From: a virus
Reading direction: 5' to 3' (one strand)
DNA: 64,000 nt
IMG/VR virus record: IMGVR_UViG_3300008738_000302
Numbering within the stretch: position 1 is the stretch's first letter; each line of letters starts with the position of its first letter. The position numbers and the translations under genes are program-made. Of the stretch, positions 3-64,000 are shown piece by piece. The notes beneath the pieces are model-generated. The model did not search any database. It worked only from the letters and a program-made list of their open reading frames with translations, and was not told the DNA's origin.

Positions 3-296
3 TTAAATGAAATAACTTTTAGAAATAAAGAAAGAATTAAACATGGAGAAACTGGTCCAGATTTACTTGATTATTTAGTAAAGAAATATCAATTAGAAGA
101 ATTTGTTTTAGGTTATAATGCGTTTTGTTCAATAGGTTGGCATGAAATAGATAAGTTAATTAATGGAACTAAACTTTCAGAAGAAGCTATAGGATTACAT
201 TTGTTTAATGCTAGATGGGAAGCTGATGGAATTGATATTGATAATTATAGTACATCTAAATCTATTCTTACTGAATTGAAGAAAAAGTATTTATGA
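3..296 (+). CDS. Partial (C-terminal) glycosyltransferase, GT32/alpha-1,4-GT-like
   Basis: Own translation from nt 3: ...HGETGPDLLDYLVKKY...FCSIGWHEIDKL...IGLHLFNARW...KKKYL*. The GxTGPxLL and xHLxN motifs are typical of GT32 C-termini. Its TGA overlaps the next ATG (ATGA 293-296). Truncated by the window edge. Confidence 0.6.
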   Translation, partial: LNEITFRNKERIKHGETGPDLLDYLVKKYQLEEFVLGYNAFCSIGWHEIDKLINGTKLSEEAIGLHLFNARWEADGIDIDNYSTSKSILTELKKKYL

Positions 297-1246
297 AATT
301 AAGTAGAGAGAAAAGAAGAGAAGTAGCATTATATCAAAGTGTTTATTTTTATGATAGGAATACAAGATTTAATACTGATATTCATCCAGATGATTTTTTT
401 CATACAACTAAATTTAGATCTTATTTTGATGATGATAATAGAATTAACGGTATTGTTCCTATAAATAAAATAGAGCAATCTATTTTTTTTAAAGATAAAT
501 ATTATTATCCTAAAACTTATATTAAAAATCCAAAGTTAGAAGGAATTTGGTTTATTAAACCAACGGATGGGTCTTTGGGTAATGATATTGAAATAACTGA
601 TGATTTAAGTTCAGTAAAAAATAATAAAAAAGCTATTTATCAACAATCAATTGATAATCCTTTATTACATAAAAATAAAAAAATAGATTTTAGAACTTTT
701 TTATTATTACAAACATTTGAGGGAAAATTTAGAGCATATTTTTATAAAGATTCTATGTTAAGATGGACAACACTTGATTATAAAAAAGATGATTTTACAT
801 TGGAACGCCAAATAACAAATTATCTTGCAAAAAGAGATGGTAAATTTTTTGGTAATACTATGGTTAGGGCATATTCTAAACACACATATCATTATTATAA
901 AGAGTTACATGAAACTATGAAAAATATTATTGTAGATATTTCAAAAAGTATTTTTGATAGAGTGAATAATAAAACACAAAGAAATATATTTCAATTGTTT
1001 GGTGTAGATTTTATTCCTGATGAAGATAAGAATGTTTGGTTATTAGAAATGAATGGTAATCCAGGTCCTTATTTACATTTAGATAGACCATTAACAAAAC
1101 AATTAAAGAATTGGACTTTAGATATAGTTGAAGATATATTTGATTTAACAGTATATCCAATGTATTATGGAAGAAAAAAAAAGTTAGGTGAATTTGAATT
1201 AGTATTTGAAAAAGATTTACAATTTGAAAAATGGATAGAAGTATGA
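293..1246 (+). CDS. Tubulin-tyrosine-ligase-family ATP-grasp ligase
   Basis: WFIKP..GSLGNDI, IYQQSIDNPLL...KIDFRTFLL, FQLFGVDFIPD...WLLEMNGNP match the TTL/polyglutamylase ATP-grasp motifs. Confidence 0.8.
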   Translation: MKLSREKRREVALYQSVYFYDRNTRFNTDIHPDDFFHTTKFRSYFDDDNRINGIVPINKIEQSIFFKDKYYYPKTYIKNPKLEGIWFIKPTDGSLGNDIEITDDLSSVKNNKKAIYQQSIDNPLLHKNKKIDFRTFLLLQTFEGKFRAYFYKDSMLRWTTLDYKKDDFTLERQITNYLAKRDGKFFGNTMVRAYSKHTYHYYKELHETMKNIIVDISKSIFDRVNNKTQRNIFQLFGVDFIPDEDKNVWLLEMNGNPGPYLHLDRPLTKQLKNWTLDIVEDIFDLTVYPMYYGRKKKLGEFELVFEKDLQFEKWIEV

Positions 1247-1710
1247 ATATTAACAGAAAAAGAGATAGACATATAGTAGATTATTTAAATAATCATTTTT
1301 ATTGTAAATTAGGTATATCAAAAGTTCATGGTATAGGAGTTTTTGCATTAAGAGATATACCTGCTGGTATTGATCCGTTTGTTTTACCTAAAAAAGATAG
1401 GTTGGTTACAGTATATAAAGCAAGTTTGAAAAATTTAGATGAGAATATTAAAGAATGGTTAGCTGAAAAATTTATAAATGATGATAAAGTTCAAACAATT
1501 TTACTTACTGATACTTTACAAAAACAGTTTAAATACTATTTTAATCATAATGAAAAACCAAATTTAGAGTGGAATACACCAAAACATCGCCATCCATGTA
1601 TGCCACCTTGTCCAAAATGTGGCGGACAAAATTTTATTACATTACAAGATATAAAAAAAGATGAAGAAATTTTTGTTAATTATGCTATTGACACTAATAT
1701 TTATAATTGA
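1231..1710 (+). CDS. SET-domain protein (putative lysine methyltransferase)
   Basis: SKVHGIGVFALRDIPAG, YFNHNEKPN (NHSxxPN-like), DIKKDEEIFVNY (EExxxxY). Confidence 0.8.
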   Translation: MDRSMNINRKRDRHIVDYLNNHFYCKLGISKVHGIGVFALRDIPAGIDPFVLPKKDRLVTVYKASLKNLDENIKEWLAEKFINDDKVQTILLTDTLQKQFKYYFNHNEKPNLEWNTPKHRHPCMPPCPKCGGQNFITLQDIKKDEEIFVNYAIDTNIYN

Positions 1711-1742: not shown

Positions 1743-3077
1743 ATGACATGGATTAATACTAAAACGGTATTCACTTGGAATACTAAGGACAAAAAGTACG
1801 AAGAAACTCTTAATGAGGGTTATGATTATACTGGTCCTACTGCTGAATGTTTTGGTTGTTTTATAGCAGGAACAGCTGTACCTACCTCAGATGTAACATA
1901 TGAGTTGATAGAAAATTTAAAAGTTGGTGATACAGTACTTACAGTTAATACAAATACAAAACCATTCACATTAGAAGAAAATAAAATACTTGAAATAGCT
2001 ACACCTGTTCATGAGAATATGGTTGAGATAAAATTTGATGCTAAAATGTTCAAAGATGGTATGCCAACATATAAGTATAGTTTAGATGAAGCAAAACCAT
2101 CTCCCTCTAAGATAGCAGTTGGTCCGAAGAAATTTCCAGAGTTCTGGCTTGAAGTTTCAGAACTAGATAAACTTTCTGATGATGAGAAAGAAGCAGAGTT
2201 TAATAAATATATTGACGCCACTTGGAAGGATTTAGTAAATACAAATACATTTGATCACCCATATTTGGTAAAAAATAAAGGTTGGTGTTCATATAAACCA
2301 AGTTTAACTAAAGAAACATATAGTATGGATGTTGGTCAGCTTGAAGTTGGTGATATTTGTTATGTGCTCAATCCTGTAAGGGGAAGAAGTCCTTTTACTG
2401 AGGTAAAGATTGTTAGTATTGAAGAAAAAAATGAAGAAACCCAAACATATAACTTAGCTAGTGTTGAAAATAATCATAATTATTTAGCTAATGGTGTATT
2501 AGTTCACAATAAAGAAAGTTTGGGTGGTGAAGATGTAACTATTTTAAGTAGTTCTGTTGACCACGCTGATGGAGAAGTACATGCTTCTATGTCAATTGAT
2601 GATAAAGTTTTAGCAGCTAGTATTTCAGGTTTACCTGATACAGATGTAGCATCAGAATTTTTATTGTGGGAATATACGGGTAGTGATATTGCTTCTCAAA
2701 TTACATTAGTTACTGCTTCAGTTGATTATATTATGTCTTCTTCTCGTAACAATTGGTTAAATATTGATTGTAAAAATGGTAGATCTGATACTTTTAGAAT
2801 TACACCTGGACACCCATTATTAGTTAAGAGTGAAAGTTATGGTGAGGGATATGGGCTTCCTGGTTCTACAGGATCAGCAGCACTTACAGGATCTGTTTGG
2901 TATTTTGATTATGCAGGAGACATTAATACAAATTATAAACTTTTAAGTTCTTCATTGGAAGAGGTAGACATTGAATCAATTACACCATATAGTGCGTCTG
3001 AATCGTCTAGCTTTTTTAGATTTGATATAGAACCACAGGATACATATTTCGTAGATCACATATTAATACATAATTAG
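1743..3077 (+). CDS. Short leader peptide fused to two tandem Hint (intein-like/BIL) domains
   Basis: 38-aa N-terminal peptide. Hint1 runs from C39 (CFIAGT, 1857) through TFDHP to VLVHN256 (2510), followed by K. Hint2 runs from about S259 through TPGHP to ILIHN, immediately before the stop. Confidence 0.8.
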   Translation: MTWINTKTVFTWNTKDKKYEETLNEGYDYTGPTAECFGCFIAGTAVPTSDVTYELIENLKVGDTVLTVNTNTKPFTLEENKILEIATPVHENMVEIKFDAKMFKDGMPTYKYSLDEAKPSPSKIAVGPKKFPEFWLEVSELDKLSDDEKEAEFNKYIDATWKDLVNTNTFDHPYLVKNKGWCSYKPSLTKETYSMDVGQLEVGDICYVLNPVRGRSPFTEVKIVSIEEKNEETQTYNLASVENNHNYLANGVLVHNKESLGGEDVTILSSSVDHADGEVHASMSIDDKVLAASISGLPDTDVASEFLLWEYTGSDIASQITLVTASVDYIMSSSRNNWLNIDCKNGRSDTFRITPGHPLLVKSESYGEGYGLPGSTGSAALTGSVWYFDYAGDINTNYKLLSSSLEEVDIESITPYSASESSSFFRFDIEPQDTYFVDHILIHN

Positions 3078-3084
3078 AGGTTAC

Positions 3085-3999
3085 ATGATATTAACTACTT
3101 CTTATACAAGTCCACCTGGATTTGGTCATAGAATTTTTGTTTGGGAATATCTTTATTTAATTAATCAATATAATGATTTCAAATTTGATTTAGTTTTATC
3201 CGATAGTGTTTATGAGGAAACTAAATATTTAGATTTTCCAAAAACAAAAATAGTGTCGGATGATAGATATACTACTAAGAAATTTAGAGCGAAAAAAATC
3301 GTAGCTGAGATATTAGATAAACAATTAACTTCACACGACCATATGCTCAAAGATTGGGATTGTTGTTATTACCATAACGAAAATATTTTTATACCTGATA
3401 TAGATACTCTTAGACCAATTCAAGAAATTCAAATGAAAGACAAAAAACTATTACAGAAAATAAAAGATACTGTTAAAGATTGTATTGGAATTCATGTGAG
3501 ACGGGGAGATTTAAAAGATGATGGTAGTGAGAATTATAAAAAATGGTTAAATAGAGATAATAACAATTGGAGATATGCATACTTAGAAGATAATTATTAT
3601 CTTACAAGATTAGAAAATCATCCAAATAAAAAATTCTATTTAAGTTCAGATGCTACATTAGAAGAATTAAAATTTATTACAGATAACTATGATGTTATTA
3701 TGAGTGATGATATTTTAGGAGAAAAAAAAGAAAGAATTAAATGGGGATTTAATGACAACTATTATATGCATGGTGGTCCTAAAATAGATTTACATTCAAT
3801 AGTAGATTTGATGGCACTAACATATTCTAAAAAATTTATTGCAAGTAATTCTATGTGGAGTGAATTTATTTCAAATTATAAACAAGATAGTTGGAATAAT
3901 ACAGATACTATTTATCCAACAAGATGTTATAAAGTTGCACCAAGAGAAGGATTATATTATTTGGATTACGGATTTCCGTCATCTATGTTACACTCATGA
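3085..3999 (+). CDS. GT11/GT23-like (alpha-1,2-fucosyltransferase-like) glycosyltransferase
   Basis: IGIHVRRGD donor-binding motif, FYLSSD, DLMALTYSKKFIASNSMWS. Confidence 0.7.
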   Translation: MILTTSYTSPPGFGHRIFVWEYLYLINQYNDFKFDLVLSDSVYEETKYLDFPKTKIVSDDRYTTKKFRAKKIVAEILDKQLTSHDHMLKDWDCCYYHNENIFIPDIDTLRPIQEIQMKDKKLLQKIKDTVKDCIGIHVRRGDLKDDGSENYKKWLNRDNNNWRYAYLEDNYYLTRLENHPNKKFYLSSDATLEELKFITDNYDVIMSDDILGEKKERIKWGFNDNYYMHGGPKIDLHSIVDLMALTYSKKFIASNSMWSEFISNYKQDSWNNTDTIYPTRCYKVAPREGLYYLDYGFPSSMLHS

Positions 4000-4724
4000 G
4001 TTTATATAAACATCCAATAAAATTCGATCTAGATAAATTATTAAAAGAAAAAGACTATGCTGAATCAGTAGTTACATATGATTCAGGATTTAGAAATCAT
4101 TGTATATCTTTGTTAGGTAGAAAAGAAGAAGAAATGGAAGGTTGGAATCTTTATTTAGCAGAAATGAATAGGCATAGAATATGGAAAGATTATAATAGAC
4201 AAGTGAATGTATTATATGATACAGAAATCTTACAAGATATTCCTTTTGATAGAAAACATTTACCTTATATGAATAGTGTATTTGATATATTTAATGAAGG
4301 AACTGAAGTTTTAGTTGCTAGATTAATTCGAAGAGAATCACATTCTTCATACGGCATACATAGAGATTATGGAAAAGGTATGGAAGAACTTGAAGATTCT
4401 AAGAAGATGATGTGGAGATTTCAGATTCCACTTATATCAAATAAAGACTGCTACTTAATTATTTTTAAAGATCATGTAGTTGACAAATGGAAAGAGTTAT
4501 ATGGTGAATATCAATTAGAAGATTTTTTAGATAAACCATCTGATGATTTTCAGGTTCATCATTTAGAGGATGGTTATTTATATCACTTTAAAGTTTGGAA
4601 GTATGCACACACGGTATGGAATATGGGGGAAACAGATAGATATACATTAGTAGTTGATACAATACCAAATGAGTGGATAGAAAATTGGGCAAAGGAAAAT
4701 TTAAATGAAGTTTTACCTTCATAA
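3996..4724 (+). CDS. 2OG-Fe(II) oxygenase, Asp/Asn beta-hydroxylase-like
   Basis: YGIHRD (HxD), RFQIPLISN, AHTVWN (distal His), DRYTLVVD. Confidence 0.7.
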   Translation: MSLYKHPIKFDLDKLLKEKDYAESVVTYDSGFRNHCISLLGRKEEEMEGWNLYLAEMNRHRIWKDYNRQVNVLYDTEILQDIPFDRKHLPYMNSVFDIFNEGTEVLVARLIRRESHSSYGIHRDYGKGMEELEDSKKMMWRFQIPLISNKDCYLIIFKDHVVDKWKELYGEYQLEDFLDKPSDDFQVHHLEDGYLYHFKVWKYAHTVWNMGETDRYTLVVDTIPNEWIENWAKENLNEVLPS

Positions 4725-5673
4725 AGATATTTTATATGAAGATCAAGCGTGGAAAACTGTTAAGTTTTTATTAGATGTAAAAAAAATATCTAATGAGGTT
4801 GTAGATATGCACAATATAGAATCTATAAAGCAATTAAATGTTTCAAGTGATGATATATGTTTTGCTAGATTTGGTCATCATTTTGATGATAAGATAGCAA
4901 CTAATAAAGCATATGATGTATTAACTCAAAAATTTAATAAAATATATCCTTCAAAAGACGCATATTATTATTATGATGATAAATTAAAGCAATATGAATT
5001 TATGTTAGAAAATGATATACCTTGTTTGAAAACATATTATGTAGGTAGTAAAGAAGAGATAGAAAAATTAAATATAAAATTTCCTATAGTTACTAAAAAA
5101 ACTTGGGGGGCTGGAACTGAACAAGTTAATAAGTGGGATGATTATGAATCTATTGTTGATAATAAAGATACTCGAAGTTGGACAGGGGGATCTATATTTC
5201 CATGTTTAGTTCAAGAATATAAAGATGTAGATTATGATATTAGAGTTAGAATTTTAAACTCTAAAGTTTTCTTTACTAAAAGAATGCACGAATTTAAAAC
5301 AAAAAATAAAGATAATTTTCCATATGGTACAAAAGAGATTCTTAAAAAAGATAGAATAAAATATCATTTACCACCATATGAAGTTCCTGTAGCATTACCA
5401 ATAAATGATTTAGCAGAAGTAGAAGATATTATACCTATAGTAGAAAAATTACATAAGATTCAAAATGAAAAATTGAATAGTAATTTTGTGGTGTGGGATA
5501 TTCTTAGAACAAATGAAGGAATAAAAATTCTTGAATTTAGTCATGTTACAGTATATAAAAGTTTTCCACAAATTTATTATGATATAGAATATAAAGAAGC
5601 AAATAAATTAACAATAAAAAATCGTGAACATTTTTTTTATTTGTATAACGAAATATTAAAAGGATTAATATGA
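4705..5673 (+). CDS. RimK/glutathione-synthetase-like ATP-grasp ligase
   Basis: DDKLKQYEFMLENDIPCLKT, FPIVTKKTWGAGTEQV, LVQEY..DYDIRV, WDILRT..G.KILEFS. Confidence 0.75.
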   Translation: MKFYLHKDILYEDQAWKTVKFLLDVKKISNEVVDMHNIESIKQLNVSSDDICFARFGHHFDDKIATNKAYDVLTQKFNKIYPSKDAYYYYDDKLKQYEFMLENDIPCLKTYYVGSKEEIEKLNIKFPIVTKKTWGAGTEQVNKWDDYESIVDNKDTRSWTGGSIFPCLVQEYKDVDYDIRVRILNSKVFFTKRMHEFKTKNKDNFPYGTKEILKKDRIKYHLPPYEVPVALPINDLAEVEDIIPIVEKLHKIQNEKLNSNFVVWDILRTNEGIKILEFSHVTVYKSFPQIYYDIEYKEANKLTIKNREHFFYLYNEILKGLI

Positions 5674-7235
5674 AGAAAGTTATTATAGTTGGTGGTGGAT
5701 TTGCAGGTTACTTAACAGCGTTGTTTTTAAATAAAAAATTTCCTAAATTAAAAATTGATATAATAAAATCATCAGATAAAGAACAAATTTCTGCTGGAGA
5801 ACAAACAGGCAAAGAACAACTACAATTGTTTTTTGAATCATTAGGAATTGAAGAAACTGAATGGTTTAGTAGAACAAAATCTTTTTTAAAAATAGGTAAT
5901 TCTTTTGTTGGGTGGGGAAACCGTGAAAATTTTGATCCTCGAGTTGGTGGACCAGATGTAGTTAATCATAGTTTTGTAATGGAAAATAAATTATTACCTT
6001 TACTTAGGAATGGTGGTGGTATGAAATCCGTAAAGGATTCTATGAAATATAATGATAAGTTACATACTGAATTATATCAAAATAGTTTTTTAGAAACACC
6101 CATAGATAATACGGATGATTATATAGATAGTTTTAAAAAACACTTTAAAAATAGTTTTTTTAATAGAAAGAATAATAGAGCCATAGCTCATATGCATGAT
6201 TGGTTAGAGATAGGTAAATTTATAGAAACTAAGTTTGATGATAATGTTAAAATAATTACTGATCATATAACTGATGTGGTTGTAGATAAAAAAAATAATA
6301 CTATAGAATATCTTGTTAATAAAGATAAAGAAAAGATTAAAGCAGATCACTACGTAGATTGTACAGGTATTAGTAGAATTTTGATTTCTAAACTTAGTAA
6401 AGTTGTAGATATTAGTGATGAATATCCTGTAAATAGTGCCGTATTTGGTCCAGTAGAATATATAGATAGAACTAAAGAGATGGTGCCAACCTTATATACT
6501 ACTGCTTTTAAAAATGGTTATTCATTTAAAACACCATTACAACATAGGATAGGAACAGGATATGTCTATTCAGATAAGTATATTAGTAAAGATGAAGCAA
6601 TAGATGAGATAAATGATTATTGGGATGGTAGATTTAAGTCAGATCAAGTTAATCATTTAAAATGGACTCCATCTTATGTAGTTAAACCTTTTCAGAAAAA
6701 TTGTAGCGCTGTAGGATTAGCAGGACAATTTGATTGTCCAATGGAATCTACAGTATTTACTCAGATATCAACTGCTCTTCAACAATTAGGAAATTATTTA
6801 AATAGAGATAATAAATTATTATACATGAATCGTTCTGATATAAGAGATGAAGATATGTTAAATTATTGTAATACTTGGACTGAATATACTTTTCATAATA
6901 CAAGACATTTTAAACAAATGATGTTTTATACTACAAATAGAGATGATAGCGAATTTTGGAAGAATATTAAAACACTTAATTATTCTGATATTTTTTATAA
7001 AAAATTAAGTTTCTTTTTAGACAATTCATTTGATTATATAATAGAAAATAGAAATAAGTTTCCTGATTATACTCCACCAACAAATTTTAATATTAATGAA
7101 GATAGATTTTGGAGAGTATATCAAAAAGGATTTAAAGGATATTTTGATTATATGGGAATAAGGGGTGTAGGACATAGTATGATATTAGATGTTCATAATT
7201 GGTTAATGATTCTTGCGTATAAAAAATACATTTAA
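5670..7235 (+). CDS. FAD-dependent tryptophan-halogenase-like oxidoreductase
   Basis: VGGGFAG Rossmann motif, YVDCTGISRIL, PLQHRIGTGYVYS, AVGLAGQFDCPMEST. The WxWxIP motif is degenerate (YSFKTP). Confidence 0.75.
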   Translation: MKKVIIVGGGFAGYLTALFLNKKFPKLKIDIIKSSDKEQISAGEQTGKEQLQLFFESLGIEETEWFSRTKSFLKIGNSFVGWGNRENFDPRVGGPDVVNHSFVMENKLLPLLRNGGGMKSVKDSMKYNDKLHTELYQNSFLETPIDNTDDYIDSFKKHFKNSFFNRKNNRAIAHMHDWLEIGKFIETKFDDNVKIITDHITDVVVDKKNNTIEYLVNKDKEKIKADHYVDCTGISRILISKLSKVVDISDEYPVNSAVFGPVEYIDRTKEMVPTLYTTAFKNGYSFKTPLQHRIGTGYVYSDKYISKDEAIDEINDYWDGRFKSDQVNHLKWTPSYVVKPFQKNCSAVGLAGQFDCPMESTVFTQISTALQQLGNYLNRDNKLLYMNRSDIRDEDMLNYCNTWTEYTFHNTRHFKQMMFYTTNRDDSEFWKNIKTLNYSDIFYKKLSFFLDNSFDYIIENRNKFPDYTPPTNFNINEDRFWRVYQKGFKGYFDYMGIRGVGHSMILDVHNWLMILAYKKYI

Positions 7236-10193: not shown

Positions 10194-10670
10194 ATGACTA
10201 AAATCGCATTTCGTACAAACATCCCTTACTTCGATAGGGATTCTTTTTTGACCCCGTTTGATAAAATATTCGATCAAATGGTTGAAACTCATTATCCAGA
10301 AATAACAAAATCCGTTGGTGTAAAACCATATGGTAATACTGCATATCCAAAAGTTAACGTATATGAATACGACGACAAAGTGGGTATTGTAGCAGAGATT
10401 CCTGGATTAAACAAGAAACAACTCAAAGTAGATGTTGAAGATGGAACTCTTACAATATCTGGAGATAAACACGGTTCTTTAATGAAAGATCAAGGTGCTA
10501 GAGTTATCCGTAAGGAATTAAAGCAATCTTCATTTAAAAGACAATTTGAATTGGGTGAGTTGTTAGATGGTGAGAACATTTCAGCCAATTTTAAGGATGG
10601 AATTTTATCTGTCTCAATTCCTAAGATGGAGCAGGAACAACCGAAGAAGACTACTGTAAAAATATCCTAA
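10194..10670 (+). CDS. hsp20: Small heat-shock protein (Hsp20/alpha-crystallin)
   Basis: PKVNVYE...AEIPGL.K..LKVDVEDGTLTISG...SFKRQF.L...ISANFKDGILSVSIPK. Confidence 0.92.
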   Translation: MTKIAFRTNIPYFDRDSFLTPFDKIFDQMVETHYPEITKSVGVKPYGNTAYPKVNVYEYDDKVGIVAEIPGLNKKQLKVDVEDGTLTISGDKHGSLMKDQGARVIRKELKQSSFKRQFELGELLDGENISANFKDGILSVSIPKMEQEQPKKTTVKIS

Positions 10671-51622: not shown

Positions 51623-51847
51623 ATGTCTAACGATATTTGGGAATTTGGGGAAGGATATCATAAGGTTCATACGGAATCTATTGATGTTGCCAAAAAAATT
51701 GCCAAAATATGTAATACTGACAGTTCTACCGAATACGTTAAAGATGGAAACGTCTTTGCTTGGGACTTTGTAGTCGAAGATTCTTTACTTCCAAAAGTTA
51801 AGAAAATCGTAAGAGGACATATTGCAGCTAAAAGTTCCGTTTCGTAA
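51623..51847 (+). CDS. Hypothetical protein
   Basis: GGGAG RBS; short ORF. Confidence 0.55.
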   Translation: MSNDIWEFGEGYHKVHTESIDVAKKIAKICNTDSSTEYVKDGNVFAWDFVVEDSLLPKVKKIVRGHIAAKSSVS

Positions 51848-54800: not shown

Positions 54801-54980
54801 ATGGATAGTGAGAATATTAATTCAGTATATAATTTATTTCAATATCTTAAAACACAATTTCAATTTACATTGATTGTATCTCATATTGATACAATGAGAG
54901 ATGCAGTAGATACTTTATTAGAAATATCAAAAGAAGGAGATTACAGTTCTGTATATTTTGAACCTGTAAAATCAGCCTGA
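51822..54980 (+). CDS. sbcDC: Fused SbcD/Mre11 nuclease - SbcC/Rad50 ATPase (gp47-gp46-like)
   Basis: HISDIQIR, GGDIAH, AGNHD, LFHG, LGDIHKRQ; Walker A ANASGKSS; coiled coil with CKFC hook; LSSGM signature; AIDEG Walker B. Confidence 0.9.
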   Translation: MQLKVPFRKLKYIHHISDIQIRNLKRHKEYEIVFNRLYEKIKENSDNAVAYIGGDIAHSKCDMSPELVDQLSRLFKNLSDIVPTIIIAGNHDCNLNNRSRLDVLTPIVNNLNHPNLHYLKDTGIYKCADTSFVVWDCWTNEKDFIEAKDVEGDTKVVLFHGTVDKAETDLGFKLPSDVHIKKFKGYDLGLLGDIHKRQFINKEETIAYCGSLVQQNHGEDIGKGYLLWDVPNRKSEYIEIPNDFGYYTINIDNGKLPTDLHDLPKKARLRVRVSNTSGTQLKKCLAVIQHKHGIQEVVVNRTDILTDRVRDGNKLDLGDVNNPDFQYEMIEEYLNNNFLVDNETLKKIKDINDELNGSLPIDNITRNVDWVLKRFEFSNMFSYGEDNIVDFTALNGTIGLFAANASGKSSLLDALCFCLFDTSTRTYTANSVLNNKRKSFKCKVWFEVNNQEYVIERIAKKKRNGHVKVNVDFYTIDDSGDLISLNGDQRRTTNLNIRQVVGTFDDFILTTLSAQNANTVFIDKTQKERKELLAQFMGLGIFDKLYTMANEEISEVQAVLKNFSKTNYDEQLADAENQIVILKDDLKQKRSNYREIEKKVHKLQEGILNKSKKIRPIDETLTDINLLQSELKDNQELHTQTQILFQEALHQISHIEETKEFTIKQLEELKKENVLQKYSELESFKYDYEQINIDIENLKKEVKHKLDKIRKLGDLEYDPDCKFCMNNVFVKDARETKKLLQEDKVKSGKLISKINQLDSQIKDYEPIEKKKEQYDKCGELFEQLNNELTTIEVKRDHLGEKTSYLDEKIENVQENIQKYYGQEKDIIFNNTIKTEIEVLETKLDTESLELKGADKKLKETEIELKVSENQKKEIIKFIEEVQELEEKHGAYKYYLEAVKRDGVPYELISKALPAIEGEVNNILSQLVDFTMTFEMDGKNINNYIVYDTDNTWPLDLSSGMERFISSLAIRVGLINVSNLPRGNFLAIDEGWGTMDSENINSVYNLFQYLKTQFQFTLIVSHIDTMRDAVDTLLEISKEGDYSSVYFEPVKSA

Positions 54981-55255: not shown

Positions 55256-58200
55256 ATGATATTAGAACGCAGAGTTAGAAAACAAAACCTACATAAGTTA
55301 GACATTCTAATTCAAGATACCACCAATGAATTTTTACAAATTCTTGATATCCCTGACACTTTGCCAGAAGGTCGAAGTTCGTTTTTAATTAATGGTTCAC
55401 CATTTTTAAAATTAACTACAGACGTTTTAGTTGAAATATTAGATAGGGATAACAATACTGTATTTGTAAACCCTGTATTTGATCCTCATTTTGTTGCGAT
55501 GGAAGGAACTGCTAGGGCTATTACAACTGAAATCTATCAAAGTACTCCTGGTGGAAGAGCATTATTAACAGTTGTTGGAGAACTTGATCATACTAAATTT
55601 TTAGGTGAAGTTCCTTTAACTCCTGATTTATTAGATCAATTAGCTGTAGAATCAGATCCACTTTTTACAGGTAATGTTTCTTTTGCTCAAGCAGTTTCAG
55701 AAAATTATTTTATACCTGAAGAGTTCAGAGGAGTTTATAATGTTAAATATACAAAAGTATTACATATAAATCCCAAAGCAAGAAATACACAACCTATAAA
55801 ATTTTATAGAGCACCACAGATACAAGCTAGAGAAATTATTAGAACAGAAGTATCACCATCAGAATCAATTTTTATAAAAAATGTAGTTGTGTCTGATGGA
55901 CAAATGAAAGGGTCTAGAGTAAATCCTTCTGATGGTTCTTTAAGATTAGTAGATCCTGCAGAAATAGCTCCTGTAAGATCTGTAATTGCTTGTGATAATA
56001 ACGCACAAGGAACTAATAAAGTAATAGGAACAATATATAATAGACAGTATCCAATTACATTAACTTCTGCTGATTCTTTTGGTAGTATTATTAGAAGAGA
56101 TTGGGAGTTTGGAGATCCACACGTAACGGCATCTCAGTATTTGGATACGTTACCAGCACAAACTTATACTTATACCAAAGCTGGAATTTATAATGCTAAA
56201 TTAGTTGTACATAGTCCTACAGGACAATATGATTTAGATAGACAATCAATAACAATTTCTAATCCACCTGCTCCAGTTGCAGATTTTACTTCACTTGACC
56301 CAACCACAAATACGGGAGAAACAGTTAAAATTACAGGTAGTATGGAGGATCCAAATTCAAGGACTTTTAGATTTAAAGATACTACCACTAATGTAGTGGA
56401 TATTGTAGATCCGTTAATATTTGGAACAAAGTTTAGTAATTTAAATGATACAGAGTATAGTTGGTCTTTTGGTGATGGTAATACATTTAATGGTATTGGT
56501 AACACTGCAAGAAATCCTGAAAATACATATGTACAATCGGGTTCATATAATGTAGCACTTACTGTTAAGAATGCATATGGTACTCAAACTAATACTAAAA
56601 CGAGTAACAATCATATTTTAATTCAACCTTCTTTACCAACGGTAGATTTTTCTGTTGATTCAGGAAGTATTAGTCAAGCACAAGCATTATCTGCGGCATC
56701 CGCAACTGTACAATTTACTAATAATTCAGTTTATTATGGAGATTCTATTTCATATGCTTGGACTTTTAATTCAAGTGGAAGTACCTCAACGGCTGTAAGT
56801 CCAACTTGTATTTATACAGGTTCATATGCGGCAGATACTACTTTTAATGTAACATTAACTGCTACAGATAATTTTGGTAGAAGTGTAACTGTAACTAAAC
56901 CAAATATGATTAGTATTACACCTTCTATTCCTGTTCCTGATTTTAGTGCAAATATAAGAGAATTTACTTTAGGACTTGGTGGTTCACAACAAGTACAGTT
57001 TACAGACGAATCTACTTCAGAAACTAACTTAACATATGATTGGTATTTTAATGGTGCTACGACAGGAAGTAGTTTATTGACTAGTAATAGTTCTACTATT
57101 GAAGGTGGATTGACTGGAACTGTTTGGGGAAATGGGGCAAGTGATGGTGCAACTTTAGATGCATCTACAGCAACATATCGTTCAGGTAATAAATCTTTAA
57201 GATTAAGAAATCTTACTGCTGCAGATTTAACTGATGTTTATACTTTTGGTTATGATATTGGTAATTCTGGAATATCTGATTTAAATACGTGGAAAGCACA
57301 GTATAGTTTAGCTGATATTACTCAAGGTGATTCTTATACTATGGAATTTTGGGCTAAATCTGATTTACCCTGGTTATCACCAACTATTCTTGCAGGAATG
57401 TTTGGTGCTAATGCAAATGGTAATATTTTTGGAGCAGGTCCTACAGAAGATACTTGGGTTATAAAAGAATTTCCTGTTACTAATAAATGGCAGAAATATA
57501 ATTTTACTTTTACTTTTAAGCACCCAAATAGTAAATACCTTACAACTCGTTTAGGTGTTAATGAATTAGGTCAAGGAAGTGGTCATATTTATTTTGATGA
57601 TATCTATGTTTATAAAGCTAATTCTACATTACAAAATCCAAAAGTAACTTATAGATCAAGAACTGATGGATCAAGGGGAACGGTTAGATTATCTGTAACA
57701 AATACAGCTGGAATTGAAAGATCTGAAACAAGAAGTAATTATATAAATACTTTAGTTGGAAAACCATCCGCTTCATTTACAATAGATGATACTACGGTAC
57801 AAACTCAAGTTCCTATAACATTTAATGGTGCAGGTTCTGATTCATATTCACCAATACAACATTTTAGATGGAATTGGGGTGATGGAACATTTGATAACAT
57901 ATATAGTGGTGTTGAAACTGCAACTCACAAATATACAACAGCAGGAACTTATACACCAAAATTAACTGTTTATTCTGCTGATGGTACGTCTACCGAAGTT
58001 AGTGTGGGGAATGTTACAATTAGTGCACCACCTGCACCGACAGTAGCTTTAAATTTTAGTCCAAATTCTTATGATCAATCACAAGGAGAAACACCTCATG
58101 AAGTAGAGGTAGAAGCAGTTATTTCAGGGCAAGCAACTGCAAGTAATATTACATTTGGTCAAGGTGATAGAACAAATTCTAGATTAGGTTTTACTGTTTA

Positions 58201-61200
58201 TGATACTCCTGGAACATATACAATTACTGCAACGGCTTCTGGGCCAGGTGGTAGTAATTCAGCAACCAAAACAATAACAGTTTCTGCACCACCTGTACAA
58301 ATAGAACCTGTAGATGAAATTGAAGATCCCGATCCAAATTTATTTGATGAAACTTTATTAGCAAATCAAGCAGGTTCAAGTTTAGGAGCAGGTTCAGGTA
58401 CAGGACAAGATCCACCTTCACCATATGGTAGTGGTGGTGGAGGCGGTTCTCCAGGTTGTGTTTTAGCAGGAACAATTCTTAGAACTTCAAGGGGAGAAAT
58501 ACCTGTAGAAGAAGTTACTGTAGATGACTTATTACTTTCTTATAATTTTGATAGTAAGGAATTTGATTATTATAAAATAGAAAGTGCGTGGAGTACTACT
58601 CAACCCACAAGAGTTTTTGTTGAAACAGAAAATGGCAAATCAGTAGAATGTTCAGATACACACTTATTCTATCATCCTGATTATAAGAACCAAGAGATTT
58701 GTGTAAAAGATTTAAATGTTGGTGATATAGTTTATACTATTGATGATGATGAAAATGTAATAGAAGATCCAATTAGAAATATTACTATTTTTGATGAAGA
58801 AGTAACAGTATATAACTTTAAAGTTCCTGTAGTACATTCTTATATAACTAATAATATTATATCTCATAATGCACAGAAATCAGAACCTGAAGGTAATAAC
58901 CCATATAATATGCCATATTTTATGAATCTAGCTTCTCCTGAAACAGAAAATTTTGTGATTGAAGCAACTGGAGATGATTCTATAGATTTTACAAGACATA
59001 TGTTGGGTGGAACATTACAAATTTTCCCAAACACAGGTTCAACGGATATGGATATTTTAAATTCCAATACTGAACCTTCTAAGAGGTATTTAGTAACACA
59101 GCAACCATTAGTTACTAAGATAAGAAAAATTAAAACTAATAAAACTATTGTTCCTGATGTAAACGGATTAATTGTTCAGAATAGATTAGATAAAGATAAA
59201 GGTGTTGTATTTAGTGAGTATCAAGATTTTGGTGCTAGTAGTTATTCGATGAGTTTTCAAAGACCCGTTACTGCTTCGTTTAGAGTTATAAATAAAAAAT
59301 CTTTTGCAAAAATAAATTTAACACAATTAAGAACATATTCAGGAGATGTATCTAGAGTAAAAGTATATTATCAAACTGCTGCACAGAGTGGATATAATCT
59401 TATTGGTGAATCTGTACTTCAAGCACCTGAAATATTAGCAGACCCTGGTGTGCGGTTTGGAAAGAAAAAAATTGGATATTTTTCAGATCAAGGTCATTTA
59501 GATTATTATTGGTATAGTAGAGAAGGTTTTCGTGCAGGTTTTTGGGGTGGAGTAGATTCTGCAGATAGTGTTTTTGGTTGGAATACACCAACTGCTTCTT
59601 TAACACACCAAAAAACACCATATATAGATACTATGAAAATATCTGGATCTAACTATAACTACAATGAGGTAGTGGGTTTATTTCATAAGTTTCCAATGAG
59701 ATTAGTTGCAGGAGTAGAATATACACTTAGATTTCAATTATCAGGAATAAAAAAGAAAAAACAATTAGATAAAGATCAAGCTGCAAAAATTGGAGCTAGT
59801 TTTCCAGCAGCACATAAGAGTCAAGCTAAAATAAGATTTTATGTATCGGGTTCAAGTTTAAAAGCAACTACACCATATGGTTATGATTTAGGTTATGCAG
59901 AATTAGAAAGCGCTGTTTCAGAATCTTATGATTATGTAGAACATAATTTTAGGACTACTAAAAATGGTGATGGTAGATTACAATTAGTTGCTGAATCGGG
60001 TGAGTGGTATATAAATGATTTAAGTATTAAACCAGCAAGAGAGAGTGGATTTAGTCCTGATTTTTCATCATTAGTGGTGCCAGTTCCAGAATTGGCTCAA
60101 AAACCAAGTGATATAGAATTTTATGCAGAGTTTTTTGATTTAAATAGTAATGTTGCTAATATACTTGCAATAGGTAAGCAATCAGAATTATTTCAAGGTT
60201 CTTCTTTAGTTATAGAAGGAACTGATAATACAATATCTGGCTCATTATTTTTAGGTGGAGATACAGAAGGATCAGGTATTGAGGTACATGGTGGTTCATC
60301 TTATATAAGAAATATTGGATACTTAGGGTATAATAGTGCTTCAATGACACAAACTCCTGAAATGCCTGAAAGAGGTAAAGCAGGATTTATGCTTTGGAGT
60401 GGATCTTTATTAACAGATATTACTGATGAATATAATTTAGGTGATGTTGGTTTTGAATTACATGGTGGTCCAGGAGTAAGAAATAATACAGCAGGTGCTA
60501 TGAGATTCCGTTCATCTACAGGTAGACTTGAAGTTACGGGCTCAATTGTAGCAACTGATGGACATTTTGCAAGAAATTTTAGTGTAGGAACGGGTTCAGA
60601 AGCTATAGAAATTTCTTCTTCTAAGTTTATAATGAAAACAAAAAATTGGAATCATCCAACTTCAAGTGCAGGTTGGGCTATAAGTGGTAGTGGAGAAGCA
60701 TTTTTTCAAGAAGGTCAGATAGGTGGTTGGCAATTAAAAACATTAGATAGGGGAACTGTACGAGAAAGAGCGGTTTTAAGTGGAAGTAATATAACATTGG
60801 ATGCGGGTGGTGCAGCACTTTATATGTCTAATAAAGGACCAGGTTCAGATCAAGTAAATCAGTTTACAACTTTAGCAGATGAATATTATTTAGATTTTAC
60901 ACCATCTCAAAGTGAGGCAATACAATCATCAGATTATTATGTTTCATTTGGACCTAAATTTAAAGTAGATAAAGATGGAACATTATTTGCAAGTGGTGCA
61001 AAATTTGTTGGAACGATAACTGCAAGTGCAGGTTTACTTGGTGGATTTAATATAGGTTCTGCTTCTATGTATGCAGGAGCACCAGAAGGTTCACCAAATT
61101 TCTTTTTAAGTGGTTCTGCGACAGGTAATAGTGGTAAATCTTCATATTTTATATCTTCTTCAAGATTTCAAGTAACAGCAGAAGGTGATATAACAGGTTC

Positions 61201-64000
61201 ACAAGTTTTATTTACAAGTGGTAAAATTGGTGGGTGGTCACTTTCTACTACATTATCAGCAACAAATATTTTACTCGACCCTGCTACACCAAAAATAACA
61301 TTAGGTGATAAATTAACATTAACAGATAGTAACTCAGGATTTTATGCAGGCACAGACGGAATAGCATTGGGTGCTAATTCTGTATTTAAAGTTACATCAG
61401 CAGGTGCATTAACTGCTACAAATGCTACAATTACAGGAAATATAACGGCACAAACAGGTACTATTGGTGGATTTAATATTGGAACAGATTTATCCAACTC
61501 TGCTGGTGGTTCTAACGCATTAGTATTAAAAGGTGCTAGTGGACAAATTACCGCTTCAAACGTTTTATTTAGTGGTGGTAAAATTGGTGGTTGGAGTTTA
61601 GCAACTGATGGATTTAGTTCTGATAGTGGTGAATTACAAATAACGGGATCAACAGGGCAAATTACAGGTTCACAAGTATTATTTAGTGGTGGAACAATAG
61701 GTGGATTTACGCTAACATCTACAGCACTAACGGGAGGCAGTACAGGTACGACTGTGGCACTTACTCCTGGAACTGGCATACATATGGGTCATGCAACTTT
61801 TGGAAGCGCACCATTTAGTGTTACAAATGCAGGTGTATTAACAGCAACATTAGGACAAATAGCAGGATTTACAATAGCGACTACGGGCATAACGTCTACA
61901 GGAATTGGTGTACATCCAAGTGGTCAAACTCATGCATTTACTGCTGGTACAAGTAATGAGTTTAGTGTAAAACATAGTGGACAAGTAAGTGGATCAAATG
62001 TAAACTTTACAGGCGGTAGAATTGGTGGTTGGGTAGTAAGTAATACTCAAATTACAAGTAGTGGTTTAGTTTTAGATTCTACAGGAGATATAAGGTCAGC
62101 CAATTTCCAACCAAGACTTACAGGTTGGAGAGTATCATCACAAGGTAATGGAACTGCAGAATTTGAAAATGTTCGTATAAGAGGAACTTTAGCTACTACT
62201 ACTTTTGAAAAAGAAACTGTAAATGCAGTTGGTGGTCAATTGTGGGTTGGTAACTCAAGCGTTATGTCAGAATCAATAAGTTCGGTTCAAACAAATATAT
62301 TAATAGAAAATGTTAGTGGTTTTCAAAAAAATGAAGTTTTAATAGTCAAAAAAACCAACCCTACAGGATTTACTAAAGAATATATGTTGGTTACAGGCAG
62401 TAAAAGAATTAATGAAGCATCTGATACTGATTTTTCTGGCCACCTTCATGTAACAAGAGGATATGGTTCTTCAACTTCACAATCTGTTTTCTTAACAGGT
62501 TCATTATTAAATGAAGGAAGTGGTATAAGTACAACAATTGGAACTTTTGGTGTAGATAATTTCCAAGGTCCTACCGCCGACGCACCCGCATTAGTATACA
62601 AGTTAATAAAAATTGATGATGAAAAGATGTTTGTAACAGGATCTACAGCAACAACTATTTCAGTTGAAAGAGGTGTTGATGGTAGTTTAAAGGCTACTCA
62701 TACGAATAATGCAGGAATTCTTGTAGCAGATGACAATACTTCATTTTTAAGTGGATTAGTTTCACCACAAGAAAGTTATGATCCAGGTCAGGTAATAGTA
62801 AGTTCAGGTAGATATATAGGTGGCACAGGAAGTAATACTACAGGTAGTGGTTATATTAGATTAAATGCAAATCCAAAAGATGGAACTACACCATTTATAG
62901 ATTTTGTTGAAAGAACAGGTAGTGGAATTTATGATGTTCAGTTAAGAGCAAGATTAGGTGATTTAAGTGGATTAGTTAATACAGCATATGGTACTGCGGT
63001 AGCAATGCCAAAAAATCCAGGATTTGGTTTAGCAAGTGAAAATGTATTTTTAAAAGGAACGATAAAAGCAACAAGTGGTTCTATCGCTGGTATAAAGATG
63101 GAGAGCGGACAACTATTCTCAGGAGAAGGTAGTTACTACAATTCTAATACACCTTTTTATCTCTCAGGTAAAGGTGATGCAACAGCAGGTGATTTTAGTT
63201 TGGGTAACAAACTAAAATGGGATGCAAGTACAAGTACACTTACAATAGCAGGACAAATTACATTGGAGAGTGGTGGTGGATTCGATCCTGATGGGTTGAT
63301 TAGTGGTTCTGCACAAATAGCTGGTGATATAAGTGGTTCTATAGCTGGTCAAACAGGCTCATTAGATGCAGGAATATCAAACGCACAATCAACAGCGGAT
63401 ACAGGAGTGGCGAATGCTGCTACTGCTCAAGCCCAAGCTAACACGGCAACTACAAATGCAGCAACTGCTCAATCGGCTATTGACACAATGGAAACACAAG
63501 TTGTACTTGATAGTGGTGGAATGGAATTACGAAAAGCAAATTCTAAAAAAGTTGCAAAATATGGAACAACAACATACTTTTATGACGGTACTGATTCGGA
63601 AAATGTAAAATTACAATTACAAGCAGCAGGTATAACTGCATATGGAGATGATTCAACCACTTACGCATCCTTTAATTCATCTGGAGTAACATTGGTAGAT
63701 AATTCTGTAACTACGGGAACGTTTACAAGTGGAACAGTAACTCTTTATGGGGCGAGTTCCGATGATAGAGTAGTTATTAATAATACAGGTATGTCTGTTT
63801 ATACAAATAATGTTTTGAAAGCAACTGCACTTGACGCTGGTTTTACTGCATATGGGGATGATGTTAATACTTACGCTACAGTAACAAGTACAGGATTAAC
63901 AATTTTTGAAGATTCTACTAATATGGCTAATTTTGGTTCAACAATGAGAGTTGGAGTAGATGCTACTGATAAATCTGCTCTTAGAGTTGCAGCTGATGGT
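55256..64000 (+). CDS. Giant tail/adhesin protein (>2915 aa, runs off the window; absent from ORF track)
   Basis: ATG 55256 (in-frame stop at 55223), MILERRVRKQNLHKLDILIQD...; frame spot-checked open to 64000. About six PKD-like repeats (about 56030-58290), a CBM4/9-like insert, a Hint domain, and G(Q/D)IT(G/A)SxVLFxGGxIGGW/F fibre repeats (about 61000-62050). Confidence 0.88.
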   Translation, partial: MILERRVRKQNLHKLDILIQDTTNEFLQILDIPDTLPEGRSSFLINGSPFLKLTTDVLVEILDRDNNTVFVNPVFDPHFVAMEGTARAITTEIYQSTPGGRALLTVVGELDHTKFLGEVPLTPDLLDQLAVESDPLFTGNVSFAQAVSENYFIPEEFRGVYNVKYTKVLHINPKARNTQPIKFYRAPQIQAREIIRTEVSPSESIFIKNVVVSDGQMKGSRVNPSDGSLRLVDPAEIAPVRSVIACDNNAQGTNKVIGTIYNRQYPITLTSADSFGSIIRRDWEFGDPHVTASQYLDTLPAQTYTYTKAGIYNAKLVVHSPTGQYDLDRQSITISNPPAPVADFTSLDPTTNTGETVKITGSMEDPNSRTFRFKDTTTNVVDIVDPLIFGTKFSNLNDTEYSWSFGDGNTFNGIGNTARNPENTYVQSGSYNVALTVKNAYGTQTNTKTSNNHILIQPSLPTVDFSVDSGSISQAQALSAASATVQFTNNSVYYGDSISYAWTFNSSGSTSTAVSPTCIYTGSYAADTTFNVTLTATDNFGRSVTVTKPNMISITPSIPVPDFSANIREFTLGLGGSQQVQFTDESTSETNLTYDWYFNGATTGSSLLTSNSSTIEGGLTGTVWGNGASDGATLDASTATYRSGNKSLRLRNLTAADLTDVYTFGYDIGNSGISDLNTWKAQYSLADITQGDSYTMEFWAKSDLPWLSPTILAGMFGANANGNIFGAGPTEDTWVIKEFPVTNKWQKYNFTFTFKHPNSKYLTTRLGVNELGQGSGHIYFDDIYVYKANSTLQNPKVTYRSRTDGSRGTVRLSVTNTAGIERSETRSNYINTLVGKPSASFTIDDTTVQTQVPITFNGAGSDSYSPIQHFRWNWGDGTFDNIYSGVETATHKYTTAGTYTPKLTVYSADGTSTEVSVGNVTISAPPAPTVALNFSPNSYDQSQGETPHEVEVEAVISGQATASNITFGQGDRTNSRLGFTVYDTPGTYTITATASGPGGSNSATKTITVSAPPVQIEPVDEIEDPDPNLFDETLLANQAGSSLGAGSGTGQDPPSPYGSGGGGGSPGCVLAGTILRTSRGEIPVEEVTVDDLLLSYNFDSKEFDYYKIESAWSTTQPTRVFVETENGKSVECSDTHLFYHPDYKNQEICVKDLNVGDIVYTIDDDENVIEDPIRNITIFDEEVTVYNFKVPVVHSYITNNIISHNAQKSEPEGNNPYNMPYFMNLASPETENFVIEATGDDSIDFTRHMLGGTLQIFPNTGSTDMDILNSNTEPSKRYLVTQQPLVTKIRKIKTNKTIVPDVNGLIVQNRLDKDKGVVFSEYQDFGASSYSMSFQRPVTASFRVINKKSFAKINLTQLRTYSGDVSRVKVYYQTAAQSGYNLIGESVLQAPEILADPGVRFGKKKIGYFSDQGHLDYYWYSREGFRAGFWGGVDSADSVFGWNTPTASLTHQKTPYIDTMKISGSNYNYNEVVGLFHKFPMRLVAGVEYTLRFQLSGIKKKKQLDKDQAAKIGASFPAAHKSQAKIRFYVSGSSLKATTPYGYDLGYAELESAVSESYDYVEHNFRTTKNGDGRLQLVAESGEWYINDLSIKPARESGFSPDFSSLVVPVPELAQKPSDIEFYAEFFDLNSNVANILAIGKQSELFQGSSLVIEGTDNTISGSLFLGGDTEGSGIEVHGGSSYIRNIGYLGYNSASMTQTPEMPERGKAGFMLWSGSLLTDITDEYNLGDVGFELHGGPGVRNNTAGAMRFRSSTGRLEVTGSIVATDGHFARNFSVGTGSEAIEISSSKFIMKTKNWNHPTSSAGWAISGSGEAFFQEGQIGGWQLKTLDRGTVRERAVLSGSNITLDAGGAALYMSNKGPGSDQVNQFTTLADEYYLDFTPSQSEAIQSSDYYVSFGPKFKVDKDGTLFASGAKFVGTITASAGLLGGFNIGSASMYAGAPEGSPNFFLSGSATGNSGKSSYFISSSRFQVTAEGDITGSQVLFTSGKIGGWSLSTTLSATNILLDPATPKITLGDKLTLTDSNSGFYAGTDGIALGANSVFKVTSAGALTATNATITGNITAQTGTIGGFNIGTDLSNSAGGSNALVLKGASGQITASNVLFSGGKIGGWSLATDGFSSDSGELQITGSTGQITGSQVLFSGGTIGGFTLTSTALTGGSTGTTVALTPGTGIHMGHATFGSAPFSVTNAGVLTATLGQIAGFTIATTGITSTGIGVHPSGQTHAFTAGTSNEFSVKHSGQVSGSNVNFTGGRIGGWVVSNTQITSSGLVLDSTGDIRSANFQPRLTGWRVSSQGNGTAEFENVRIRGTLATTTFEKETVNAVGGQLWVGNSSVMSESISSVQTNILIENVSGFQKNEVLIVKKTNPTGFTKEYMLVTGSKRINEASDTDFSGHLHVTRGYGSSTSQSVFLTGSLLNEGSGISTTIGTFGVDNFQGPTADAPALVYKLIKIDDEKMFVTGSTATTISVERGVDGSLKATHTNNAGILVADDNTSFLSGLVSPQESYDPGQVIVSSGRYIGGTGSNTTGSGYIRLNANPKDGTTPFIDFVERTGSGIYDVQLRARLGDLSGLVNTAYGTAVAMPKNPGFGLASENVFLKGTIKATSGSIAGIKMESGQLFSGEGSYYNSNTPFYLSGKGDATAGDFSLGNKLKWDASTSTLTIAGQITLESGGGFDPDGLISGSAQIAGDISGSIAGQTGSLDAGISNAQSTADTGVANAATAQAQANTATTNAATAQSAIDTMETQVVLDSGGMELRKANSKKVAKYGTTTYFYDGTDSENVKLQLQAAGITAYGDDSTTYASFNSSGVTLVDNSVTTGTFTSGTVTLYGASSDDRVVINNTGMSVYTNNVLKATALDAGFTAYGDDVNTYATVTSTGLTIFEDSTNMANFGSTMRVGVDATDKSALRVAADG
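58457..58870 (+). other. Hint (BIL-type) domain inside giant tail protein
   Basis: CVLAGT (C1), SDTHLF (block B), VYNFKV..VHSYITNNIISHN; 138 aa; the +1 residue is Ala. Confidence 0.85.

Follow-up and report, generated by a model that had tools for sequence, protein, structure and literature searches.

A peptide-Hint gene of a large tailed phage carries an optional, intein-like Hint at the junction beside its conserved Ser1 Hint

Within a 64,000-nucleotide stretch of the IMG/VR virus record IMGVR_UViG_3300008738_000302 (hereafter the window), the open reading frame (ORF) at 1743..3077 on the + strand codes for a protein that is built from a 38-residue peptide followed by two Hint domains. Comparison with its homologues shows that the first of these domains, Hint1, is a mobile insertion of intein-like character that is optional, and that the gene which received it is a peptide-Hint fusion in its own right. 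The part that every member of this family keeps is the C-terminal Hint, which begins with a serine (Ser1), and not the peptide. We propose that both domains act by cleavage or acyl transfer at their N-terminal junctions as opposed to canonical splicing, and we place the probability of this reading, taken as a whole, at roughly 55%.

The ORF contains 444 codons plus a stop and has a GGAG about 10 nt 5' of its ATG. C39, H255-N256, K257, S259 and the terminal H443-N444 with its stop can be read straight from the sequence and define the order of the parts. The N-terminal peptide (residues 1-38; 1743..1856, + strand) is of a form that we call type A, MxWINTK...A.C plus FG. It is followed by Hint1 (C39 to N256; 1857..2510, +), an inserted Hint that resembles bacterial intein-like (BIL) and PT-HINT domains and belongs to a class that we name HNK, with a block B that reads T169-F-D-H172 and a lineage-specific loop insert at residues 100-161 (2040..2225, +). 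The K257-E258 linker (2511..2516, +) then supplies the conserved +1 Lys of the Hint1 class and the -1 residue of the core Hint, with the equivalent of E258 also being present in alleles that lack the insert. The core Hint, or Hint2, runs from S259 to N444 (2517..3074, +), terminates exactly at His-Asn-stop and is the constant, most conserved part of the family. Its block B, T354-P-G-H357 (2802..2813, +), conforms to a [TS]xxH motif found in every member, and it also contains a nearly invariant family-specific insertion, GLPDTDVASEFLLWEYTGS (residues 296-314; 2628..2684, +), that is present in neither Hint1 nor inteins.

An initial annotation of this ORF, made from its letters, had described a peptide-Hint-Hint protein with no C-extein in which Hint1 spans C39...HN256, has Lys at +1 and carries an insert of about 65 residues, and in which Hint2 ends in HN-stop. 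This description is correct throughout, with the insert measuring 62 residues and having no counterpart in most homologues. The same annotation had excluded canonical splicing for Hint1, and we agree, as a class 1 intein has Cys, Ser or Thr at +1 and the Lys found here rules that chemistry out; K257 follows N256, and a stop follows N444. A separate candidate, that Hint2 is a split intein, was ruled out since a C-terminal intein fragment needs an extein after it, and the next ORF begins 7 nt past the stop.

Hint1 is a Hint domain well beyond chance. It matches the Pfam models Intein_splicing (1.2e-9) and AXH (1.2e-15) as well as Hint_2 and Hint, and TIGR01443 intein_Cterm matches residues 240-256. 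The PT-HINT model PF07591 is missing from the matches of the window protein at E<=0.1; it does appear in the precomputed domains of many homologues, and also for a Hint in a giant ORF discussed below. An AlphaFold 2 (AF2) model of residues 35-261 superimposes on BIL2 of the Tetrahymena BUBL locus (6y75) with a Z score of 23.4 and a root-mean-square deviation (rmsd) of 1.5 Å over 149 residues, and in this superposition residues 39 and 256 coincide with intein residue 1 and the terminal Asn, respectively. BUBL BIL2 is the closest solved structure, with the best inteins and the C. thermocellum BIL scoring about 4 Z units lower, and the nucleophile C39 is paired with block B T169xxH172. The loop insert precedes block B, where homing endonucleases do not normally sit, which indicates a loop expansion and not an endonuclease. 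In the AF2 model its residues 108-136 are disordered and are followed by a helix at 146-160, and 126 nt of it (window 2100-2225) are missing, in frame, from the 96%-identical copy in the related locus L006. A homing endonuclease was ruled out by this location, the largely disordered prediction and the difference between near-identical copies.

The block B region of Hint1 also gave an unexpected set of matches. Residues 167-210 (window 2241-2372) score 58.5 bits against the AXH model PF08517, which has a 33-bit cut-off, with the match covering only profile positions 72-115 of 116 and so falling short of a full-length AXH domain. The same region (DHPY.VKNKGW.S..PSLT) matches human HBP1 structures with E ~3e-6. 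No paper that links AXH to Hint was found in the literature searched.

The relatives of Hint1 number more than 1,400 and form the HNK class, which is related to BIL domains. Among 138 relatives that we inspected, comprising 204 junctions, the Hint lies within 12 residues of the protein end in 77, and the +1 residue is Lys at 136 junctions and Ser, Cys or Thr at only 16. Tandem arrays contain up to seven copies. The end position and the +1 counts together indicate that Hints of this class usually function with neither a C-extein nor a +1 nucleophile, and the prevalence of Lys indicates that K257 is a hallmark of the element and not a quirk of this gene. Hint1 has the features that define A-type BILs, namely a terminal His-Asn, no need of a +1 nucleophile and a location in a variable region (PMC7765530).

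Evidence that Hint1 is dispensable comes from homologues of the whole protein. There are hundreds of these in metagenomes, and many are just 190-228 residues long, with an N-peptide fused straight to the C-terminal Hint. When 108 distinct core-Hint sequences were compared, 31 had no inserted Hint, 58 had one and 19 had two in tandem. The core-Hint tree requires at least 17 switches between absence and presence of an insert, and cores that are only ~0.05 substitutions per site apart carry zero versus two inserts. Insert-free alleles are known in both peptide clades. At least three Hint types occupy the same site, one of them (the MSKKEILNIP... type) without Cys1. The insertion falls 1-4 residues upstream of the conserved Ser, in a Gly-rich linker, with the acidic -1 residue retained. 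This is the pattern expected of a class 1 intein, that is, an in-frame insertion into a conserved gene that also has empty alleles and is occupied at the same site throughout. DNA alignment of empty and occupied alleles did not resolve the exact insertion boundary.

This variation in copy number bears directly on the initial annotation, which had treated the two Hints as one dedicated device that leaves the 38-mer with an activated C-terminus, to be cyclised or attached to a target as a ubiquitin-style tag. A dedicated two-Hint machine is not compatible with a Hint1 that is optional and present in zero, one or two copies among near-identical core genes, and we regard the tag proposal as improbable. 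In its favour, the peptide shows, within its own clade, the same degree of conservation as the core Hint: 18 distinct type-A sequences have at least 13 near-invariant positions, including W3, W12, Y19 and C36. Both AF2 models predict, with modest confidence, a beta-hairpin formed by residues 5-13 and 18-27, and tailoring-type enzymes are encoded nearby. The chemistry would also have a published precedent in the closest structural relative, as BUBL BIL2 transfers its N-terminal cargo to a Lys amine without ATP, forming Lys isopeptides in a tagging process that needs no E1 or E2 (PMC8616854).

However, conservation of the 38-mer, on which the initial annotation had made its proposal depend, extends to that one clade only. 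The family has two conserved N-peptide forms, the 36-38-mer (MxWINTK...C) seen in the window and a ~20-mer (...WGGK...IP), and it is the latter, an unrelated-looking sequence, that replaces the 38-mer in the largest clade. About one fifth of the forms have no peptide at all, as in proteins that start MG(G)-Cys. For a RiPP precursor, the presence of the small peptide would be expected to track the tailoring genes. Radical SAM/SPASM, B12-radical SAM, ATP-grasp and other genes of the tailoring type adjoin the gene in several loci, and these cassettes persist without the peptide; locus L050 lacks it, yet its genes are arranged just as in L026 and L041, which do encode the peptide. Since the 38-mer is swapped in one clade and absent from others that retain the neighbour genes, it is unlikely to be the sole product. 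Finally, the peptide is not ubiquitin-like in either size or fold.

The constant element of the family is instead the core Hint. Its 186 C-terminal residues are recognised by no Pfam model and by no PDB sequence search, and its assignment to the Hint superfamily was made by profile and by fold. An hhalign profile-profile comparison of the core Hint with Hint1 gave a probability of 98.4% (E 7e-14) in global mode and 97.4% in local mode with the same register, aligning S259 with Cys1, T354xxH357 with T169xxH172 and HN with HN. For an insert-free homologue, the AF2 model superimposes on BIL2, the C. thermocellum BIL, inteins and Hedgehog with Z scores of 13.8-14.5 and an rmsd of ~1.9 Å over ~127 residues, and BUBL BIL2 is again the best match (Z 14.5). 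The core Hint thus belongs to the Hint superfamily. Note that the first 8-20 residues after S259 have low confidence in both AF2 models, so the Ser1 register rests on the sequence profiles.

The conservation of this domain speaks against an alternative in which the gene consists of stacked intein relics that are decaying or purely selfish and do nothing for the phage. Such a reading would account for a protein that is almost all Hint, for its location in a hypervariable island and for inserted Hints that come and go. We nevertheless consider it very improbable. Ser1 is encoded by TCN in 52 sequences and by AGT in 7, and its retention across these codon families indicates that the amino acid itself is under selection. 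None of the 134 members shows a frameshift or an internal stop. The terminal residues are His-Asn in 130 of the 134 and His-Ser in 3, with a C-extein in none. Identity across loci is 50-58% for the core Hint, compared with 36-59% for the GT32-like and 32-52% for the ATP-grasp proteins that flank it, and its catalytic residues and the invariant family motif are conserved as well.

We favour cleavage or acyl transfer. The constant core consists of a short N-peptide joined to a Ser1 Hint that ends in His-Asn-stop, a Hedgehog-like layout without a C-extein, and in the window copy a second, unrelated Hint has entered two residues upstream of the core Ser1. Both Hints retain the residues for the first step, a nucleophile plus TxxH, which would support an N-to-S or N-to-O acyl shift. 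As neither has a +1 Cys, Ser or Thr, cleavage or acyl transfer is expected at G38|C39 and at E258|S259, not canonical splicing. Cyclisation of Asn256 would free Hint1. The 38-mer would leave as a thioester and would then become a free acid or be attached to a different nucleophile, perhaps to K257 through isopeptide chemistry like that of BUBL. It is known that A-type BILs cleave without a +1 nucleophile (PMC7765530). We further propose that the gene can tolerate the insertion of Hint1 since its protein would in any case be cleaved, or give up its acyl group, at this junction.

The +1 Lys can also be read in a different manner. Hint1 might remove itself by rejoining the 38-mer to K257 in a non-canonical way, either by aminolysis after Asn cyclisation, which has been reported for A-type BILs, or through an isopeptide on the Lys side chain as in BUBL BIL2, after which the rebuilt peptide-Hint2 would be processed by Hint2 alone. 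The preference for Lys in the HNK class, and its near-invariance within this family, suggest that the residue has a role, and the closest structure to Hint1 is a maker of Lys isopeptides (PMC8616854). In addition, a mobile element that spreads among near-identical alleles should not harm its host gene. Against this, A-type BILs cleave but cannot ligate their flanks (PMC7765530), some of the retained inserted Hints have no Cys1, as in the MSKKEILNIP... type, and the residue after some second inserts is Glu, or already the Ser, in place of Lys. We consider self-removal unlikely on balance.

The surroundings of the gene were compared across about 75 related loci. The Hint gene lies in a tight operon with 4-nt gene overlaps, and the core Hint appears to be linked genetically to a GT32-like gene and to a RimK-like ATP-grasp ligase, as well as to tailoring enzymes that differ from locus to locus. 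In the window, the 3' end of the GT32-like glycosyltransferase gene (3..296, +; the whole gene is L086:5744-6472) is the conserved upstream neighbour, present in 46 related loci. It is followed by a TTL-type ATP-grasp gene (293..1246, +; 14 related loci) and a SET-domain gene (1231..1710, +; 7-8 related loci). Directly downstream of the Hint gene in the type-A clade is a 304-aa, weakly GT11-like gene (3085..3999, +; 14-15 loci), followed by a weakly Asp/Arg-hydroxylase-like gene (3996..4724, +; 2 related loci) and by the RimK-like ATP-grasp gene (4705..5673, +), the conserved downstream neighbour in 50 related loci. The genes between and around the GT32-like/ATP-grasp pair vary and include, besides the TTL-type ATP-grasp, SET, GT11-like and hydroxylase-like genes, ones for sulfotransferases, 2-oxoglutarate (2OG) oxygenases, DegT-like proteins, GT7-plus-LamG proteins, GDP-mannose dehydratase and radical SAM proteins of the B12-binding and SPASM types. 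Radical SAM genes, of the B12-binding type and one with a SPASM domain, flank the Hint gene in some relatives (L040:8402-16696; L070:8126-9565). Such genes are typical of peptide-modifying pathways.

Two further genes of this region were seen. A Trp-halogenase-like gene (window 5670-7235, Pfam 2e-58) overlaps the ATP-grasp gene by 4 nt and was ruled out as a member of the conserved module, having no counterpart in any of ~80 related loci. Upstream of the window, L086:5356-5601 is an 81-aa ORF that has the size and position of a thioredoxin-like (WCGPC) gene found two genes upstream of the Hint gene in several related loci.

The recurrence of ATP-grasp genes beside the Hint gene raises the question of whether the core Hint is mainly a substrate or scaffold rather than a protease. 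The RimK-like ligase could, for example, add residues to the free carboxylate of the terminal Asn, making a post-translational C-extein, or mark the protein for neighbouring transferases. RimK and TTL enzymes extend protein C-termini. All paralogues share a terminal H-[N/D/E]-COOH, and in L011, L059 and L083 a paralogue without a nucleophile, ending in His-Asp-stop, lies right before a second ATP-grasp gene. When the ATP-grasp protein was predicted in complex with the core Hint, the score was 0.40 against 0.01 for the best control, from runs with contact agreement of at least 3% and a partner pLDDT (predicted local distance difference test) of at least 71, and no interface was reported. Of 80 solved complexes, 58 attain the mark that this pair reaches, as do 2 of 110 mismatched pairs; 7 of those 80 complexes and both mismatches did so with scores <=0.60, so a pass at such a low score is weak support and, without a strong prior, is wrong more often than right. 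A search for longer, fused ATP-grasp-Hint forms of the RimK-like ligase family found none. The ligase could instead serve sugar or glycan chemistry, given the glycosyltransferase, DegT and GDP-mannose dehydratase genes nearby, and the conserved Ser1 and TxxH argue that the Hint is also catalytic. We give a substrate role for the core Hint a slim chance. The profile of the ligase matches generic ATP-grasp structures only and stays under every NCBIfam cut-off, and in LR756508.1, the one cultured or assembled phage record found to encode a similar ligase, there is no Hint in the vicinity.

Broader still is the idea of a phage pathway that is centred on the core Hint. A ribosomal peptide would be activated as a Hint ester and passed on without E1 or E2, the RimK-like ligase would act on the Hint protein, for example by building a C-extein on the His-Asn carboxylate after translation or by extending the end of the released peptide, and neighbouring sulfotransferases, radical SAM/SPASM enzymes, SET and TTL proteins, hydroxylases and glycosyltransferases would decorate the product. 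We offer this only as a speculative scheme with low odds of being right.

Several points weigh against our reading of this gene. Every chemical step is derived from conserved residues, and the geometry at Ser1 in particular is a sequence-based prediction for a segment that is poorly modelled after S259. The scatter of inserts on the core-Hint tree could reflect repeated precise loss instead of gain. Freeing a cargo by cleavage cannot explain the function in full, since in peptide-less members (MG-Cys...) hardly anything precedes the cut. A terminal His-Asn whose carboxylate is free is conserved, yet it has no obvious role in a pure N-cleavage model. Lastly, the shared gene order in related phages may be a matter of inheritance and not of functional coupling.

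Additional Hint proteins occur in these phages. One paralogue has an N-region of ~107 residues, a Cys1 Hint and His-Asp-stop (L054:7288-8058, L059:1470-2240, L070:5590-6339), and always comes just after a giant protein of 1,858-2,425 aa. The second consists of a 134-165-residue Hint with no N-terminal nucleophile, also with His-Asp-stop (L011:4428-5786, L059:8906-10370, L083:2233-2637), and the diverged, second ATP-grasp gene that it directly precedes is ~25% identical to the first ATP-grasp gene. The window itself encodes an internal Hint at 58457-58870, which corresponds to residues 1068-1205 of a giant PKD-domain protein (ORF 55256..64000) that exceeds 2,900 aa and has no stop before the window ends. 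The sequence of this Hint, GGGGGSPG|C...ISHN|A, puts Ala at +1, and both Intein_splicing and PT-HINT match it; it would be predicted to cut the giant protein in two and not to splice it.

The window makes up most of a 69.5-kb IMG/VR viral contig, for which CheckV estimates a completeness of 38%. Its GC content is ~26%, and all large ORFs are on the + strand. Baseplate-wedge and SbcCD-like genes indicate a large tailed phage, and the baseplate protein has its nearest relatives in Microcystis phage Mel-JY01, the Flavobacterium phage "immuto" group and a 484-kb uncultured phage. The SbcCD-like gene (51822-54980) is one ORF of 1,052 aa with SbcD-like (33-349) and SbcC-like (371-1044) parts, and appears to be a fused SbcCD nuclease. 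An Hsp20/alpha-crystallin gene at 10194-10670 has counterparts of 68-76% identity in four related loci.

The core-Hint family looks restricted to phages and marine metagenomes so far. The ORF at 1743-3077 has no match in PHROGs and none by tblastn against 50,697 phage records, a scan of IMG/VR returned only four weak partial matches to unrelated Hint proteins, and no relatives of the core Hint were present in the 185,579 prokaryote genomes scanned, although records close to the window may be hidden from these searches. Leads from the ESM Atlas were below threshold and were all Hint families. No paper describing the peptide-Hint architecture was found in the literature searched.

Inteins and Hedgehog signalling rely on Hint chemistry, as does the ubiquitin-like tagging that Tetrahymena BUBL carries out without enzymes. 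Three things are unusual here: a phage protein that is scarcely more than a short peptide and a Ser1 Hint with a free terminal His-Asn, other Hints that invade the junction beside the core Hint's own active site, and a persistent link to an ATP-grasp ligase and to fast-changing genes for protein or glycan tailoring. If the Hint ester does serve transfer, this would give viruses a way of tagging with peptides or of making modified ones. If the protein only cuts itself, it would be a clean natural case in which a mobile Hint is tolerated because its host site is a cleavage site. In addition, short self-cutting modules of this type could serve as protein-engineering tools.

When compared with known systems, Hint1 resembles the A-type BIL/PT-HINT domains, typified by the C. 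thermocellum BIL (2lwy; Z 19.5, rmsd 1.4 Å, 31% identity), with which it shares Cys1, TxxH, a terminal His-Asn, the absence of a +1 nucleophile, a variable region and tandem copies. It differs in strongly preferring Lys at +1 as a class, and in its location at a peptide/Hint junction in a phage gene, whereas A-type BILs precede the toxin domain of secreted bacterial proteins. BIL2 of BUBL1, from the polyubiquitin-like locus of Tetrahymena thermophila (6y75, 6tmm), is the best structural match to both Hint1 and the core Hint. However, a BUBL-type tagging module has flanking ubiquitin-like domains, while here the N-flank is a 38-residue hairpin peptide and the C-flank another Hint; the cargo is a peptide of 20-38 residues, there is no downstream ubiquitin-like acceptor, the setting is a phage and not a eukaryote, and the activity is predicted only. 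Canonical mini-inteins (Ssp DnaB, gp41-1; Z 18-19.6) are likewise inserted in frame at a single site of a conserved gene, of which empty alleles also exist. Unlike them, Hint1 has neither a +1 Cys, Ser or Thr nor a homing endonuclease, and its host site is a linker beside another Hint's active site, not a conserved enzyme motif. The core gene, for its part, has the layout of Hedgehog/Hog proteins (1at0, 6tyy; Z 13.8-13.9), an N-terminal cargo and a C-terminal Hint with nothing after it. It does not qualify as one of them, as it has Ser1 in place of Cys1, no region past the His-Asn and thus no sterol-recognition region, a terminal His-Asn that is kept, and a cargo that is tiny or absent.

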